Positions 4,397 through 61,237 of a stretch of DNA of 64,000 nucleotides are shown here, piece by piece. The notes beneath the pieces are model-generated. The model had not been told where the DNA came from and ran no database searches. It saw only the letters and a list, made by a program, of their open reading frames with translations. Source of the stretch: Escherichia phage JN02. Every line of letters begins with the position of its first letter. Position 1 is the first letter of the stretch. A program made the translations under genes and the position numbers. The stretch lies in the sequence record MT782071.1; one strand, 5' to 3'.

Positions 4397-4426
4397 ATAG
4401 TATCAACAACTACAGACCTTGTAAAC
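4397..4426 (-). promoter_or_regulatory. Early promoter cassette (-35 GTTTAC, -10 TACTAT)
   Basis: Minus-strand GTTTAC-N18-TACTAT; ggtctatag / ctacagacc inverted repeat. Confidence 0.5.
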
Positions 4427-9091: not shown

Positions 9092-9121
9092 ACTATAACA
9101 TAAACTTACTTAGATGTAAAT
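9092..9121 (-). promoter_or_regulatory. Early promoter cassette (-10 TATAGT)
   Basis: ttgataggactactataacat element. Confidence 0.45.
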
Positions 9122-9274
9122 TATTTCAACGTCACCTTTAGCTGCTTTATAACCTTCAGCCCAAGATACAACAGAGTTTTTATCTGAGGATTCAAATTCA
9201 GGCATTGGACTTTCACCAATATTCACACAGTATGTTTCTTCATTTTCATCGAACCAAATAATTAAAGTAGTCAT
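9110..9274 (-). CDS. Hypothetical small protein, about 54 aa (below ORF-track cutoff)
   Basis: Hand-translated ORF MTTLIIWFDENEETYCVNIGESPMPEF...; strong AGGAG Shine-Dalgarno; own promoter upstream. Confidence 0.4.
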   Translation of the reverse strand: MTTLIIWFDENEETYCVNIGESPMPEFESSDKNSVVSWAEGYKAAKGDVEIIYI

Positions 9275-9304
9275 TTTGTTTACTCCTCTGTAGTTGATAA
9301 GTCT

Positions 9305-9334
9305 ATAGTATCACCATCCTTGGTGCTTGTACAT
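9305..9334 (-). promoter_or_regulatory. Early promoter cassette (-35 TGTACA, -10 TACTAT)
   Basis: Near-identical to the element at 45570..45599. Confidence 0.45.
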
Positions 9335-9675: not shown

Positions 9676-9704
9676 ATAGTAACACATCTAGGGAAGAAGT
9701 AAAC
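9676..9704 (-). promoter_or_regulatory. Early promoter (-35 GTTTAC, -10 TACTAT)
   Basis: Minus-strand GTTTAC-N17-TACTAT. Confidence 0.5.
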
Positions 9705-9757: not shown

Positions 9758-10384
9758 TTACTTACGAGTTTTTGCATACTGAGCAGCGTCAGCAGCCAAA
9801 CGACCTGCCTGACGAAGTTTTTCTTTAATCGCATCGTGAAGTGGTTGAGTATACTTCAAACCTTCGATAGTCAAATAAAGACGATAAAGGTCTGGGGTAT
9901 CAAGGTTGTTGATATGTTGGCCATTGCGAAGAATATTGAATTCACGAACGAGTGAAGATGTATCGGATTCAATATCGCGAACAAGCGAAGATAGTTGTTT
10001 ATATTTTTTTTCCAGGCTAGAAGTATCAAACTTAAGAGCAGGAGCTTTAGGAGTTGCTTTTACTTCAGGCTTAGGCTCAGGTTTTGCTATTGCTTTAGGG
10101 GCCGCAGGTTTAGGAATGGTAGGAGCAGGTTTTACTTTAGGCGAACCAGATTTAGCAGGAACACCACCACTAACAATATCTTTGAATGCTTTAGAAGCTC
10201 TGTAATATTCTTTTTGGCTCGAAGTGTCGATACCGTACATGGCTTGAACGTTTTTGAAAAACTCTGTACTAGTTTTTGTACCAGAAATAGCATCATAAGC
10301 AGCTCGCCATTTCTCTTTTGTCATACGTACACCGGCTTCGGTGATTACTTCCGTTTCGGCTAAAAATTCATTAAAAGTATACAT
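9758..10384 (-). CDS. Candidate capsid-targeted protein, 208 aa, N-terminus MYTFNEFLAE, with Pro/Ala/Lys-rich linker
   Basis: ORF in track; capsid-targeting-like N-terminus; low-complexity linker GSPKVKPAPTIPKPAAPKAIAKPEPKPEVKATPKAP between two domains. Confidence 0.6.
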   Translation of the reverse strand: MYTFNEFLAETEVITEAGVRMTKEKWRAAYDAISGTKTSTEFFKNVQAMYGIDTSSQKEYYRASKAFKDIVSGGVPAKSGSPKVKPAPTIPKPAAPKAIAKPEPKPEVKATPKAPALKFDTSSLEKKYKQLSSLVRDIESDTSSLVREFNILRNGQHINNLDTPDLYRLYLTIEGLKYTQPLHDAIKEKLRQAGRLAADAAQYAKTRK

Positions 10385-13109: not shown

Positions 13110-13139
13110 ATAGTAACACGCCATCATCCTTATGTAAAC
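13110..13139 (-). promoter_or_regulatory. Early promoter cassette (-35 GTTTAC, -10 TACTAT)
   Basis: aggatgat / atcatcct inverted repeat around the -10. Confidence 0.5.
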
Positions 13140-45241: not shown

Positions 45242-45266
45242 GGGAGACTTCGGTCTCCCTTTTTTG
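45242..45266 (+). terminator. Rho-independent terminator after gene 23 (gggagac-UUCG-gtctccc, T6)
   Basis: Perfect stem, UUCG tetraloop, T-tract. Confidence 0.75.
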
Positions 45267-45269
45267 GTT

Positions 45270-45539
45270 TTATTTCTGTGCAATTTCGATGTAAGTTTTC
45301 AAAATATTTTGCCAATTAGGCATACCTTCTTGGACATATGCCGGAGAGCCGTCTTTGTTTTTGAATGACGCAAGTTTATCAGTGGCCCAATAACCTTTAG
45401 CTCGAGCTTCAGAATCAACTTTCATCCATACTTTGTTGAAGGCATTACCATTAACTTTTGCACCATATTTTTCTACTAACTTAACTGCTTCAGCTTCTAG
45501 AACTTTTAAAGTATCTCGTAAGAAACGTGCTTTAGTCAT
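45270..45539 (-). CDS. Hypothetical protein, 89 aa, between genes 23 and 24
   Basis: ORF in track; strong AGGAG Shine-Dalgarno and own early promoter. Confidence 0.5.
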   Translation of the reverse strand: MTKARFLRDTLKVLEAEAVKLVEKYGAKVNGNAFNKVWMKVDSEARAKGYWATDKLASFKNKDGSPAYVQEGMPNWQNILKTYIEIAQK

Positions 45540-45569
45540 TTTGTTTACTCCTCTGTAGTTGATAAGTCT

Positions 45570-45599
45570 ATAGTATCACATACCAAATACGTTGTAAAC
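45570..45599 (-). promoter_or_regulatory. Early promoter cassette (-35 GTTTAC, -10 TACTAT)
   Basis: About 40 nt identical to the cassette at 9278-9320. Confidence 0.5.
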
Positions 45600-45605
45600 A
45601 ATCTT

Positions 45606-45613
45606 TATAAATA
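45606..45613 (+). promoter_or_regulatory. Late promoter TATAAATA (gene 24)
   Basis: Exact octamer 28 nt upstream of gp24 ATG. Confidence 0.6.
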
Positions 45614-45640: not shown

Positions 45641-46924
45641 ATGAGTAAAATCCAAAAATTATTGCGTGAATCTACAACGTCTACTAGCAACTCAATTGGT
45701 CGCCCAAATCTCGTTGCTTTGACTCGCGCTACGACTAAATTAATATATTCTGACATTGTAGCAACACAAAGAACTAATCAGCCTGTTGCTGCTTTTTATG
45801 GTATCAAATATCTTAACCCAGATAACGAATTCACATTTAAAACTGGTGCTACTTATGCGGGTGAAGTTGGATATGTAGACCGAGAAAAAATTACTGAGCT
45901 CACAGAAGAATCAAAAGTCACACTAAATAAAGGCGATTTTTTCAAATATAATAATATCGTCTATAAAGTGTTAGAAGATACACCATTTGCAGATATTCAA
46001 GAAAGTGATCTAGAATTAGCTCTTCAGATTGCAGTCGTTCATTTAAAGGTACGGTTATTTTCAGATGCAGCGGTAACAAGCAAATTTGAAAGCTCTGATA
46101 GCGAAATTTCTGATGCAAGATTCCAGATTAATAAATGGCAAACTTCAGTCAAATCTCGTAAACTTAAAACTGGACTCACGGTTGAATTAGCGCAAGATTT
46201 GGAAGCGAATGGATTTGATGCCCCTAACTTCTTAGAAGATTTGCTTGCTACTGAAATGGCCGATGAAATTAATAAAGATATTCTTCAGTCTTTAATTACT
46301 GTATCGAAACGTTATAAAGTTACTGGAATTACTGACACCGGATTTATTGACTTGAGCTATGCATCCGCTCCAGAAGCAGGACGTTCATTATATCGAATGG
46401 TGTGTGAAATGGTATCACACATTCAAAAAGAGACAACTTATACTGCAACGTTTTGTGTAGCCTCAGCTCGTGCAGCTGCTATTCTTGCTGCTTCTGGTTG
46501 GTTAAAACATAAGCCAGAAGATGACAAGTATCTTTCACAAAATGCTTATGGATTCTTGGCAAATGGATTACCTCTTTACTGTGATACCAACAGTCCGTTA
46601 GATTATGTTATTGTGGGTGTTGTAGAAAATATCGGCGAAAAAGAAATTGTAGGGTCCATCTTTTATGCTCCATACACTGAAGGAGTAGATTTAGATGACC
46701 CGGAACATGTTGGTGCATTTAAAGTTGTAGTTGATCCAGAAAGCTTGCAACCGTCTATCGGATTATTGGTTAGATATGCTTTATCAGCAAATCCTTACAC
46801 AGTAGCAAAAGACGAAAAAGAAGCGAGAATAATTGATGGTGGGGACATGGATAAAATGGCAGGACGTTCAGACTTGTCTGTTTTACTCGGTGTTAAATTG
46901 CCTAAAATTATTATAGATGAATAA
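45641..46924 (+). CDS. 24: Head vertex protein gp24
   Basis: 427 aa as in T4. Confidence 0.9.
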   Translation: MSKIQKLLRESTTSTSNSIGRPNLVALTRATTKLIYSDIVATQRTNQPVAAFYGIKYLNPDNEFTFKTGATYAGEVGYVDREKITELTEESKVTLNKGDFFKYNNIVYKVLEDTPFADIQESDLELALQIAVVHLKVRLFSDAAVTSKFESSDSEISDARFQINKWQTSVKSRKLKTGLTVELAQDLEANGFDAPNFLEDLLATEMADEINKDILQSLITVSKRYKVTGITDTGFIDLSYASAPEAGRSLYRMVCEMVSHIQKETTYTATFCVASARAAAILAASGWLKHKPEDDKYLSQNAYGFLANGLPLYCDTNSPLDYVIVGVVENIGEKEIVGSIFYAPYTEGVDLDDPEHVGAFKVVVDPESLQPSIGLLVRYALSANPYTVAKDEKEARIIDGGDMDKMAGRSDLSVLLGVKLPKIIIDE

Positions 46925-48631: not shown

Positions 48632-50050
48632 TTATGGATATGTATAGATGATACCAGTTTCTAAAGCAGTTTTATGGATGACGTATCCATTACGTGATTC
48701 TTGAACATCAACTTCCGGATAGTCTTTCATCATCTTCTGAAGTGTGTAACGATGCAAGTAGTACTTACTATCTGGATCTTCAGTTTTCCAATCTTTACCT
48801 TCTTCAGTCATTTTTTGGATTTCATCCATAACCCACCATCCGCACCAGATGTAAGCTGAAGTACGATGTGGAAGAGGATGAACATAAGGTAGTTCACCTT
48901 CTGGTTCTGGAGCAACTTTATCGGTTACCTGAACTTGACCTTCTGCTGTAATAGTTTTGCTATCGTAATCAGTTGCAGTAATAGTTGCAGTAACTTCAAT
49001 AGTTTGACTTCCAATAGATGAGGTATCAACAGTATATACATTAGTTGACCCTTCTACAGGAGAAGAATCTTTCTTCCACGAGTAAGTAATTTGTGCTGCG
49101 TCAGGTGCGCCAGTAACATTAGCAGTAAATGTAGCCGAAGCATCTTGTTGAACATTAATAGAAGGAGGAGTCAATGTAATCTGTGGATTCATTGTCTTCT
49201 TATTAACCGTTAATGATACTTCATTCGAAGTAACTTCCTTTGCATCATAATCTGTCGCTGTTACTTGGGCTACACACTTAATTTTTTTAACTCCACTTGT
49301 AGTTGGAGTATAGCTAAATGTAGAGTTAGTTTCTCCACCAACCTGTGAATCATCTACATACCACTGATACGTAGCAGACGCTCCAACCGGTTGAGAAGCT
49401 AAGGCAGCAGTAAATTGAACTTGGGTTCCAATTACTCCGGCCGAAGGACTATTGGGAGTTACTGCCAACGTAGTTGTCTGTGTCTTTTTATTAACAGTCA
49501 GTGACACTTCATTAGAAGTAACGCTTAGTGCATCATAATCTGCCGCAGTTACTTGAGCTACACACTTGATTTTTTTAACTCCGCTTGTAGAAGGAGTGTA
49601 ATTGAATGTAGCGGAAGTTGCTTCGCCAACAGGAGAATCATCTACATACCATTGATAAGTAGCGTTTGCGCCTGATGGCTGCGAAGCTAAAGCGGCAGTA
49701 AATTGAACTTGGGTTCCAATTACTCCAGCGTCAGGGCTATTAGGAGTTACAGCTAAGGTAGTCGTTTGTGTCTTGTTTTGAACTGTGATAGTTGTAGAAG
49801 CTTCTGCTGTTTCAGCTTCAGCTTCCGGAACTGTATTTGTTGCAACTACTTTAATAGTCTTTTGACCTGCAGGTCCTTTTAGTACATAACTAAAAGTTGC
49901 TTCAGCTCCATCTTGTGGAACATCATCTACAGTCCAAGCATATGTAATAGTTCCACCTCCAGTTTCACCACTGGGAGTAGCAGTAAACTGCTTAGTCTCA
50001 TCTATAACTCCAGTAGGTGTTTTAGGAGTTATATCAACTGTAAAAGCCAT
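48632..50050 (-). CDS. hoc: Highly immunogenic outer capsid protein Hoc with expanded Ig-like repeats
   Basis: 472 aa; tandem Ig-like domains; position between 24.x and inh as in T4. Confidence 0.85.
   Translation of the reverse strand: MAFTVDITPKTPTGVIDETKQFTATPSGETGGGTITYAWTVDDVPQDGAEATFSYVLKGPAGQKTIKVVATNTVPEAEAETAEASTTITVQNKTQTTTLAVTPNSPDAGVIGTQVQFTAALASQPSGANATYQWYVDDSPVGEATSATFNYTPSTSGVKKIKCVAQVTAADYDALSVTSNEVSLTVNKKTQTTTLAVTPNSPSAGVIGTQVQFTAALASQPVGASATYQWYVDDSQVGGETNSTFSYTPTTSGVKKIKCVAQVTATDYDAKEVTSNEVSLTVNKKTMNPQITLTPPSINVQQDASATFTANVTGAPDAAQITYSWKKDSSPVEGSTNVYTVDTSSIGSQTIEVTATITATDYDSKTITAEGQVQVTDKVAPEPEGELPYVHPLPHRTSAYIWCGWWVMDEIQKMTEEGKDWKTEDPDSKYYLHRYTLQKMMKDYPEVDVQESRNGYVIHKTALETGIIYTYP
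49202..49777 (-). repeat. Tandem duplication (2 x about 288 bp) of one Ig-like domain inside hoc
   Basis: Two consecutive 96-aa units nearly identical at protein and nucleotide level. Confidence 0.8.
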
Positions 50051-50059
50051 AAGTTATCC

Positions 50060-61207: not shown

Positions 61208-61237
61208 ATAGTATCACACATCCATGTGTTTGTAAAC
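61208..61237 (-). promoter_or_regulatory. Early promoter cassette (-35 GTTTAC, -10 TACTAT)
   Basis: Minus-strand GTTTAC-N18-TACTAT. Confidence 0.5.

Follow-up and report, generated by a model that had tools for sequence, protein, structure and literature searches.

In bacteriophage T4 the minus strand between genes 23 and 24 carries segD, a free-standing GIY-YIG homing endonuclease gene; a review of T4 mobile elements from 2010 states that a promoter specific to segD could not be identified (PMC2988022). Other T4-type phages have members of the PHROG 6003 protein family in the same slot, position and orientation as the gene described here, annotated as RB69ORF188c and RB69ORF189c in RB69, as ‘similar to VR7 gp190’ in VR20 and as gp177 in QL01. 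For the orthologous position in RB69 an early promoter (Pe:109605, score 29.9 in the HMM set) was predicted by Nolan et al. in 2006, as well as a late promoter (Pl:109573) at the position orthologous to the TATAAATA box of gene 24. Two more general descriptions are relevant to this locus. The PeSL elements of PST and other T4-type phages have the promoter consensus TTTACW-N17-TAYWAT (PMC2839356; PMC4122927), and phage accessory genes that are variable, non-essential and exchanged horizontally often act against the defences of the host (Silas et al., bioRxiv 10.1101/2023.04.06.535777).

We analyzed a stretch of 64,000 nucleotides (the window) from Escherichia phage JN02 (MT782071.1), in which an 89-aa minus-strand open reading frame (ORF) lies between genes 23 and 24. 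The source of this 64-kb window is an RB69-like T4-type coliphage of the genus Mosigvirus; the taxonomy given for an annotated relative is Straboviridae; Tevenvirinae; Mosigvirus, and the 461 nt around the ORF match about 120 Mosigvirus records over their full length at 95-99.8% identity. Compared with its PHROG 6003 kin the ORF shows no difference in kind: its allele is of the Mosigvirus-type and intact, in contrast to the frameshifted copy of the RB69 reference. The ORF is an ordinary, already annotated accessory gene and not a new kind of element. All of the parts that the initial annotation had seen here, a minus-strand ORF with a strong ribosome-binding site and an early promoter, bounded by the gp23 terminator and the late promoter of gene 24, could be located:

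45242..45265, plus strand: gene 23 intrinsic terminator, with a hairpin at 45242-45259 (GGGAGAC-TTCG-GTCTCCC) followed by a T-run; left boundary of the slot
45270..45539, minus strand: 89-aa ORF of the PHROG 6003 family, ATG start, 270 nt; product basic, soluble and modelled as a three-helix bundle with a beta-hairpin
45553..45548, minus strand: Shine-Dalgarno sequence GAGGAG, 8 nt 5' of the ATG, read from the sequence
45570..45599, minus strand: predicted T4-type early (sigma-70) promoter GTTTACA-N17-TACTAT with TGn, from a pattern scan
45606-45613, plus strand: gene 24 late promoter box TATAAATA, 27 nt ahead of the start codon of that gene (ATG at 45641); right boundary of the slot

The hairpin is homologous to the gp23 terminator found in the T4 and RB27 slots. 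On the other side the late box lies only 6 bp from the G of GTTTACA, with the early and late promoters standing back-to-back. The translated protein has a computed mass of 10.1 kDa, a pI of 9.6 and no cysteine. Its mRNA folds without unusual structure (z = -0.75), and the Shine-Dalgarno sequence is unpaired in the centroid fold and accessible.

The predicted early promoter consists of TTTACA (45598..45593), a 17-nt spacer and TACTAT (45575..45570) on the minus strand, with TG ahead of the -10 box, and would start transcription near 45563. It shows the sequence hallmarks of a T4-type early promoter, namely the -35 box, the 17-nt spacer, TAnnAT with TG, an A/T-rich upstream region and an orientation that places it before the ORF. 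The strict pattern GTTTACA-N17-TANNAT occurs five times in the window, always on the minus strand, against 0.14 occurrences expected by chance. The early promoter sequence of the ORF is identical in RB69 and in the window.

The ORF had been described as delivered on a cassette nearly identical to one at 9278-9320. The resemblance is genuine and amounts to an exact repeat of 47 nt, the longest exact direct repeat in the window:

45579..45533, minus strand: 47-nt module GTGATACTATAGACTTATCAACTACAGAGGAGTAAACAAAATGACTA (extended -10, leader, Shine-Dalgarno sequence and ATGACTA), exact repeat of 9314..9268
9314..9268, minus strand: second 47-nt copy, ahead of a 54-aa ORF at 9110-9274, the orthologue of RB69ORF145c
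1104-1132, 4397-4425, 9305-9333, 9676-9703, 13110-13138, 45570-45598 and 61208-61236, minus strand: sites sharing the promoter-plus-leader module

Identity between the two copies runs from the extended -10 box to 4 nt past the ATG, and their -35 regions differ. In RB69 the 23/24 leader copy carries 3 substitutions and the ORF145c leader copy is unchanged. The consensus TACTAT-AGACYTATCAA recurs at several other early genes in the window and a leader of this type also precedes the orthologue of the ORF in Dhakavirus, so that the module is best described as the local early promoter/leader consensus. The "cassette" is largely this genome-wide consensus, with the two 47-nt copies as its identical extreme; their identity probably arose by duplication or gene conversion. 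Delivery on a cassette is not supported by these data: the -35 box and what lies upstream of it are locus-specific and common to orthologous slots elsewhere and to T4 segD, and part of the identity is general consensus. More broadly, Mosigvirus early promoters have TACTAT followed by AGACYTATCAA or CATCCYATCAA, with the Shine-Dalgarno sequence about 10-25 nt further on, in a module of about 60-80 nt.

Two side observations belong here. The window has only one other exact direct repeat of at least 25 nt, a 32-nt sequence at 49407-49438 and 49695-49726; both copies lie inside a long minus-strand ORF (48635-50053), where RB69 has hoc annotated, and are probably an internal domain repeat. In the e/tRNA/ip region the second module copy is adjoined by a 208-aa minus-strand ORF (9758-10384) with the N-terminus MYTFNEFLAETEV, a start that we take to resemble the capsid-targeting leader of T4 internal proteins.

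The early promoter invites comparison with PeSL elements. TTTACA-17-TACTAT fits their consensus and, as in a PeSL, a repeated module stands ahead of a variable, non-essential ORF; the second 47-nt copy may serve as a recombination substrate. The differences lie in the arrangement. Directly upstream of the promoter there is the gene 24 late promoter instead of a stem-loop or terminator, the only predicted terminator being the plus-strand gp23 hairpin downstream of the ORF, and the repeated part comprises the -10 box, leader, Shine-Dalgarno sequence and ATG, not a terminator plus promoter. Since the upstream stem-loop is lacking, the locus is not a PeSL in the strict sense, but its promoter/leader module could play the same recombinogenic part, of which the identical second copy of 47 nt and the allele swap at the slot are indirect signs.

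To see how widely the gene is distributed we used tblastn with the 89-aa protein, which retrieved 239 phage records, about 120 of them at 80% identity or above (Mosigvirus) and 119 below 60%; the ORF is full length in 237 of the 239. With 117 records at 95% protein identity or above it is near-universal in Mosigvirus, and about 120 records of this genus have it annotated as "hypothetical protein". The protein matches the PHROG 6003 HMM with an E-value of 2.1e-45, residues 1-89 aligning to profile positions 1-90 of 90. That the ORF might be a cargo peculiar to this genome is contradicted by its near-universal presence in Mosigvirus, its membership in PHROG 6003, its existing annotation and a promoter prediction that dates from 2006. 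In Dhakavirus and Gaprivervirus this slot is taken by orthologues with 27-38% identity; in the distant members inspected (Gaprivervirus VR20; Dhakavirus QL01, 04086 and ABTNLS3) place and orientation are the same, and metagenomic T4-type contigs with alleles of 34%, 61% and 70% identity have the same arrangement.

Many other T4-type phages lack the gene. Empty slots measure 80-93 nt. One occurs in Tequatrovirus RB27, and most of the T4-like records at 95-99% identity, which number several hundred, have one too, their gap being about 730 nt shorter than that of T4. In RB27 the late-promoter box is followed by 17 nt and then by the terminator hairpin, and the early promoter is absent. Short gaps with no annotated gene were also found in a Klebsiella T4-type phage (81 nt), Winklervirus CHI14 (88 nt), Pseudotevenvirus EC-W2 (93 nt) and Moonvirus CF1 (80 nt). 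Most of the segD region is present in only 53 records, T4 and 52 others. This comparison of occupancy across T4-type phages indicates that the slot has at least four states: empty, filled by segD, or filled by either of two divergent alleles of the ORF family. Thus the earlier description of the 23/24 gap as a variable slot holds, empty in most relatives of T4, with segD in T4 and the ORF family in Mosigvirus, Dhakavirus and Gaprivervirus, and the 23/24 region compared across T4-type genomes does not show the ORF as a core gene of most of them. Broken copies also occur. The RB69 reference gene (RB69 109291-109531) carries two indels (+1 and -1) and is annotated in two fragments, ORF188c and ORF189c; the indels may be real or may be sequencing errors from 2003. 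The gene is also split in phage mogra. A literature search for the RB69 gene found no work on it, matches to "ORF188c" being only to unrelated 44RR and RB49 ORFs.

The initial annotation was right about the T4 occupant, segD being on the minus strand between genes 23 and 24. Like the ORF it is antisense in the same slot, flanked by a homologous terminator hairpin on one side and by the late promoter of gene 24 on the other, and it is preceded by a homologous promoter-like module, TATTTATAAAG..TTTACA-17-TA(T/C)TAT with TGn upstream. Indeed, in a scan of the T4 slot the best promoter-like site was TTTACA-17-TATTAT with TGn at the homologous position (T4 NC_000866 107253-107281, minus strand; 1254-1282 of locus L005). 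All occupied slots, including that of T4 segD, have the junction TATTTATAAA(G/A)-N2-4-(G/A)T(T/G)TACA. In contrast the proteins are unrelated (223 aa for segD, 89 aa here) and the ORF has neither a nuclease motif nor similarity to segD; segD is also rare, with its 53 records, whereas the family of the 89-aa ORF is fixed in three genera. The common junction and the T4 site at the homologous position suggest a single promoter module behind which either segD or the ORF may stand, with the terminator, promoter and capsid genes as recombination arms. Comparing the slots further points to a promoter of sigma-70-type for T4 segD, for which the 2010 review reported none.

From a wider point of view the locus resembles the accessory regions described by Silas et al. 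(bioRxiv 10.1101/2023.04.06.535777) in being variable, located between core genes, non-essential, fast-evolving and exchanged. It differs from them in that it is a single-gene slot and not a cluster, and a counter-defence or trigger role of its gene is putative.

The ORF appears to have a history of its own. Twenty-three family members cluster into four subfamilies, a Mosigvirus-type, a Dhaka/Gapri-type, a Vequintavirinae-type and a siphovirus-type. Identity to the window in Dhaka/Gapri phages is 33-35% for the ORF, 83% for gp23, and about 70% for gp22 and gp24. In one metagenomic contig (L021) gp23 and gp24 are 92-93% identical to those of VR20 and QL01, i.e. Dhaka/Gapri-type, whereas the ORF is 61% identical to that of the window and only 27-28% to those of VR20 and QL01. 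The history of this ORF is therefore at odds with that of its flanks, so that either alleles were exchanged between T4-type lineages or an old polymorphism was sorted. The family also extends beyond T4-type phages. A member is present in the Vequintavirinae phage ABPH49; members on contigs of 75-141 kb lie within long runs of small co-directional genes; on a contig of about 50 kb a member adjoins a primase-polymerase/DUF5906 gene, NinX and Ead/Ea22; and on a siphovirus-like contig one follows directly after the tail-tip genes. PHROG scans of the neighbors in these non-T4 contexts gave matches only to families of unknown function. No relatives of the siphovirus-type member (P0026) were found in representative bacterial genomes, and when six-frame ORFs were scanned with the family HMM no paralogue turned up in the window, in two RB69 segments or in T4 (bases 1-50000 and 106-118 kb).

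The ORF is a real protein under conservation. The ratio dN/dS is 0.13-0.15 between diverged alleles, which indicates purifying selection, and compared with phage G53 there are 0 nonsynonymous changes at a pS of 0.054. Family members are 83-93 aa long, 22 of the 23 are basic (pI 9.2-9.9, net charge +3 to +9), and K3, F6, G31, N32, N35 and Q70 are invariant. An AlphaFold model from the 23-sequence alignment reached a pLDDT of 94.1 and a pTM of 0.80 and shows a three-helix bundle with a beta-hairpin (an earlier model from 5 close sequences, with a pLDDT of 68 and no Foldseek hit against the PDB below E 0.7, was discarded). A search with the confident model returned no informative structural relative, and comparison with anti-defence and host-takeover folds in the PDB showed nothing more specific than a generic helical bundle. 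Nor was there a consistent match in PADLOC, a library of defence-system proteins. At 89 aa the ORF is well below the size of about 200 aa or more expected of a GIY-YIG homing endonuclease, and none of the 23 members has a Pfam nuclease match; with no Pfam match above threshold the initial view that this is not a homing endonuclease stands.

Some candidate similarities were set aside. Pfam DUF4859 (E 0.0029) fell under its gathering score and appeared in 2 of the 23 members only; we took it as chance. HMM matches to a 655-aa cytochrome-b5-like repeat protein and to an Ig-repeat protein of 835 aa were rejected, since repeats account for their E-values and the underlying motif of about 30 residues came from a query profile of the Mosigvirus-type only. 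A complete cytochrome b5-like/MAPR domain for haem or steroid binding was likewise rejected: the likeness to the repeat protein (P0013) is local, about 30 residues, the other subfamilies differ there and there is no Pfam match.

Tentatively, we take the product for an accessory protein, made early and not essential, that works by binding and probably serves host takeover or counter-defence. Tequatrovirus and at least four further T4-type groups lack the gene, and it is broken in the RB69 reference and in mogra. It has the accessory traits that fit a gene lost without obvious cost, fast-evolving, horizontally exchanged and present in unrelated virulent enterobacterial phages. A small, basic, early protein that evolves fast and is exchanged leads us to read it in terms of host takeover or counter-defence, which would be its likeliest roles. 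A binder rather than an enzyme is suggested by the length of 83-93 aa, the lack of a match to a catalytic family and the basic sequences of 22 of the 23 members. The ORF would be a monocistronic early accessory gene in a small variable slot within the capsid gene cluster, and host sigma-70 RNA polymerase would transcribe it right after infection, antisense to the late capsid genes. The resulting 10-kDa basic, soluble, non-enzymatic protein would bind a macromolecule of the host (or of a competitor) stoichiometrically, with the conserved polar patch N30-G31-N32, N35 and Q70 as the candidate binding surface. Homologous recombination through the flanks, which are highly conserved, would keep the gene in place or swap it. 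It is possible, though rather doubtful as a whole, that these proteins are an uncharacterised counter-defence/host-takeover family with its own fold, common to T4-type, Vequintavirinae and siphovirus-like enterobacterial phages, that the 23/24 gap is a one-gene accessory slot whose content (either ORF allele, segD or nothing) is exchanged by recombination via the conserved terminator and the back-to-back promoter module, and that segD took over both the slot and an early promoter that was originally this gene's.

The main rival to an accessory protein directed at the host is a small regulator that would bind nucleic acid and act on the programme of the phage itself (transcription, translation, DNA/RNA metabolism). 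The basic pI and charge of 22 of the 23 members and the Asn, Gln and Lys among the invariant residues are in its favor, and the modelled compact helical bundle with a hairpin would suit such a protein; we consider it unlikely. One could also see the early antisense transcript as the main function, an ‘anti-late’ RNA damping premature capsid expression with the ORF secondary. Early anti-late RNA occurs in T4. Here the promoter faces the 3' end of gene 23 and no terminator-like site is predicted on the minus strand, where the hairpin is followed by AAAAUAAGAUUU. The strong purifying selection on the protein and its confident, co-varying fold nevertheless make this explanation very unlikely, as does the fact that the Vequintavirinae and siphovirus-like members are not opposite a capsid gene, while most T4-type phages have no promoter at the slot at all.

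Position is also what would recommend a capsid-related factor, i.e. a chaperone or regulator of gp23/gp24: the ORF lies between genes 23 and 24 in three genera and co-occurs with a tandem duplication of gene 24 in Dhakavirus and Gaprivervirus. Yet its promoter is an early sigma-70 one and it runs against the late head genes, the copy in RB69, a laboratory phage that is viable, is frameshifted, T4 and many genera with the same capsid lack the gene, and its siphovirus-like and Vequintavirinae relatives sit away from head genes, all of which renders such a factor highly improbable. We give the least credence to a selfish passenger or mobile-element remnant without function for the phage, for example a degraded homing-endonuclease cassette. 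That idea draws on the free-standing GIY-YIG gene in the T4 slot and on the promoter module that the region upstream of segD has in common with the ORF, but a remnant would hardly have a dN/dS of about 0.13, remain full length in nearly all of the phage records and belong to an independent family of four subfamilies with constant length, and the protein bears no likeness to GIY-YIG or any other nuclease.

As a hypothetical gene in more than 200 phage genomes, with a promoter predicted in 2006, the ORF was known and matters little by itself. What our analysis adds is the description of a slot with four states, the evidence for allele exchange, the wider distribution among phages and a confidently modelled fold that has no relatives. 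As the only gene in a clean slot, with two divergent alleles and a presence in several unrelated phage groups, the ORF is a well-defined candidate for functional screens of phage accessory genes, for which RB69 and mogra are natural knock-outs and the T2-, T4- and T6-type phages natural empty relatives.

Gene 24, which encodes the capsid vertex protein, is a tandem duplicate in Gaprivervirus, in Dhakavirus QL01 and in related metagenomic contigs, and single in the window, T4, locus L022 and phage 04086. The duplications lie at the following positions of the loci compared:

L002, 330-2894: gene 24 duplication
L003, 336-2899: gene 24 duplication
L011, 1338-3897: gene 24 duplication
L021, 837-3401: gene 24 duplication

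The family member of the last of these contigs (P0006, 90 aa, L021 3501-3773) is named ‘NADPH-dependent curcumin reductase CurA’ in one public source, an evident mis-annotation.
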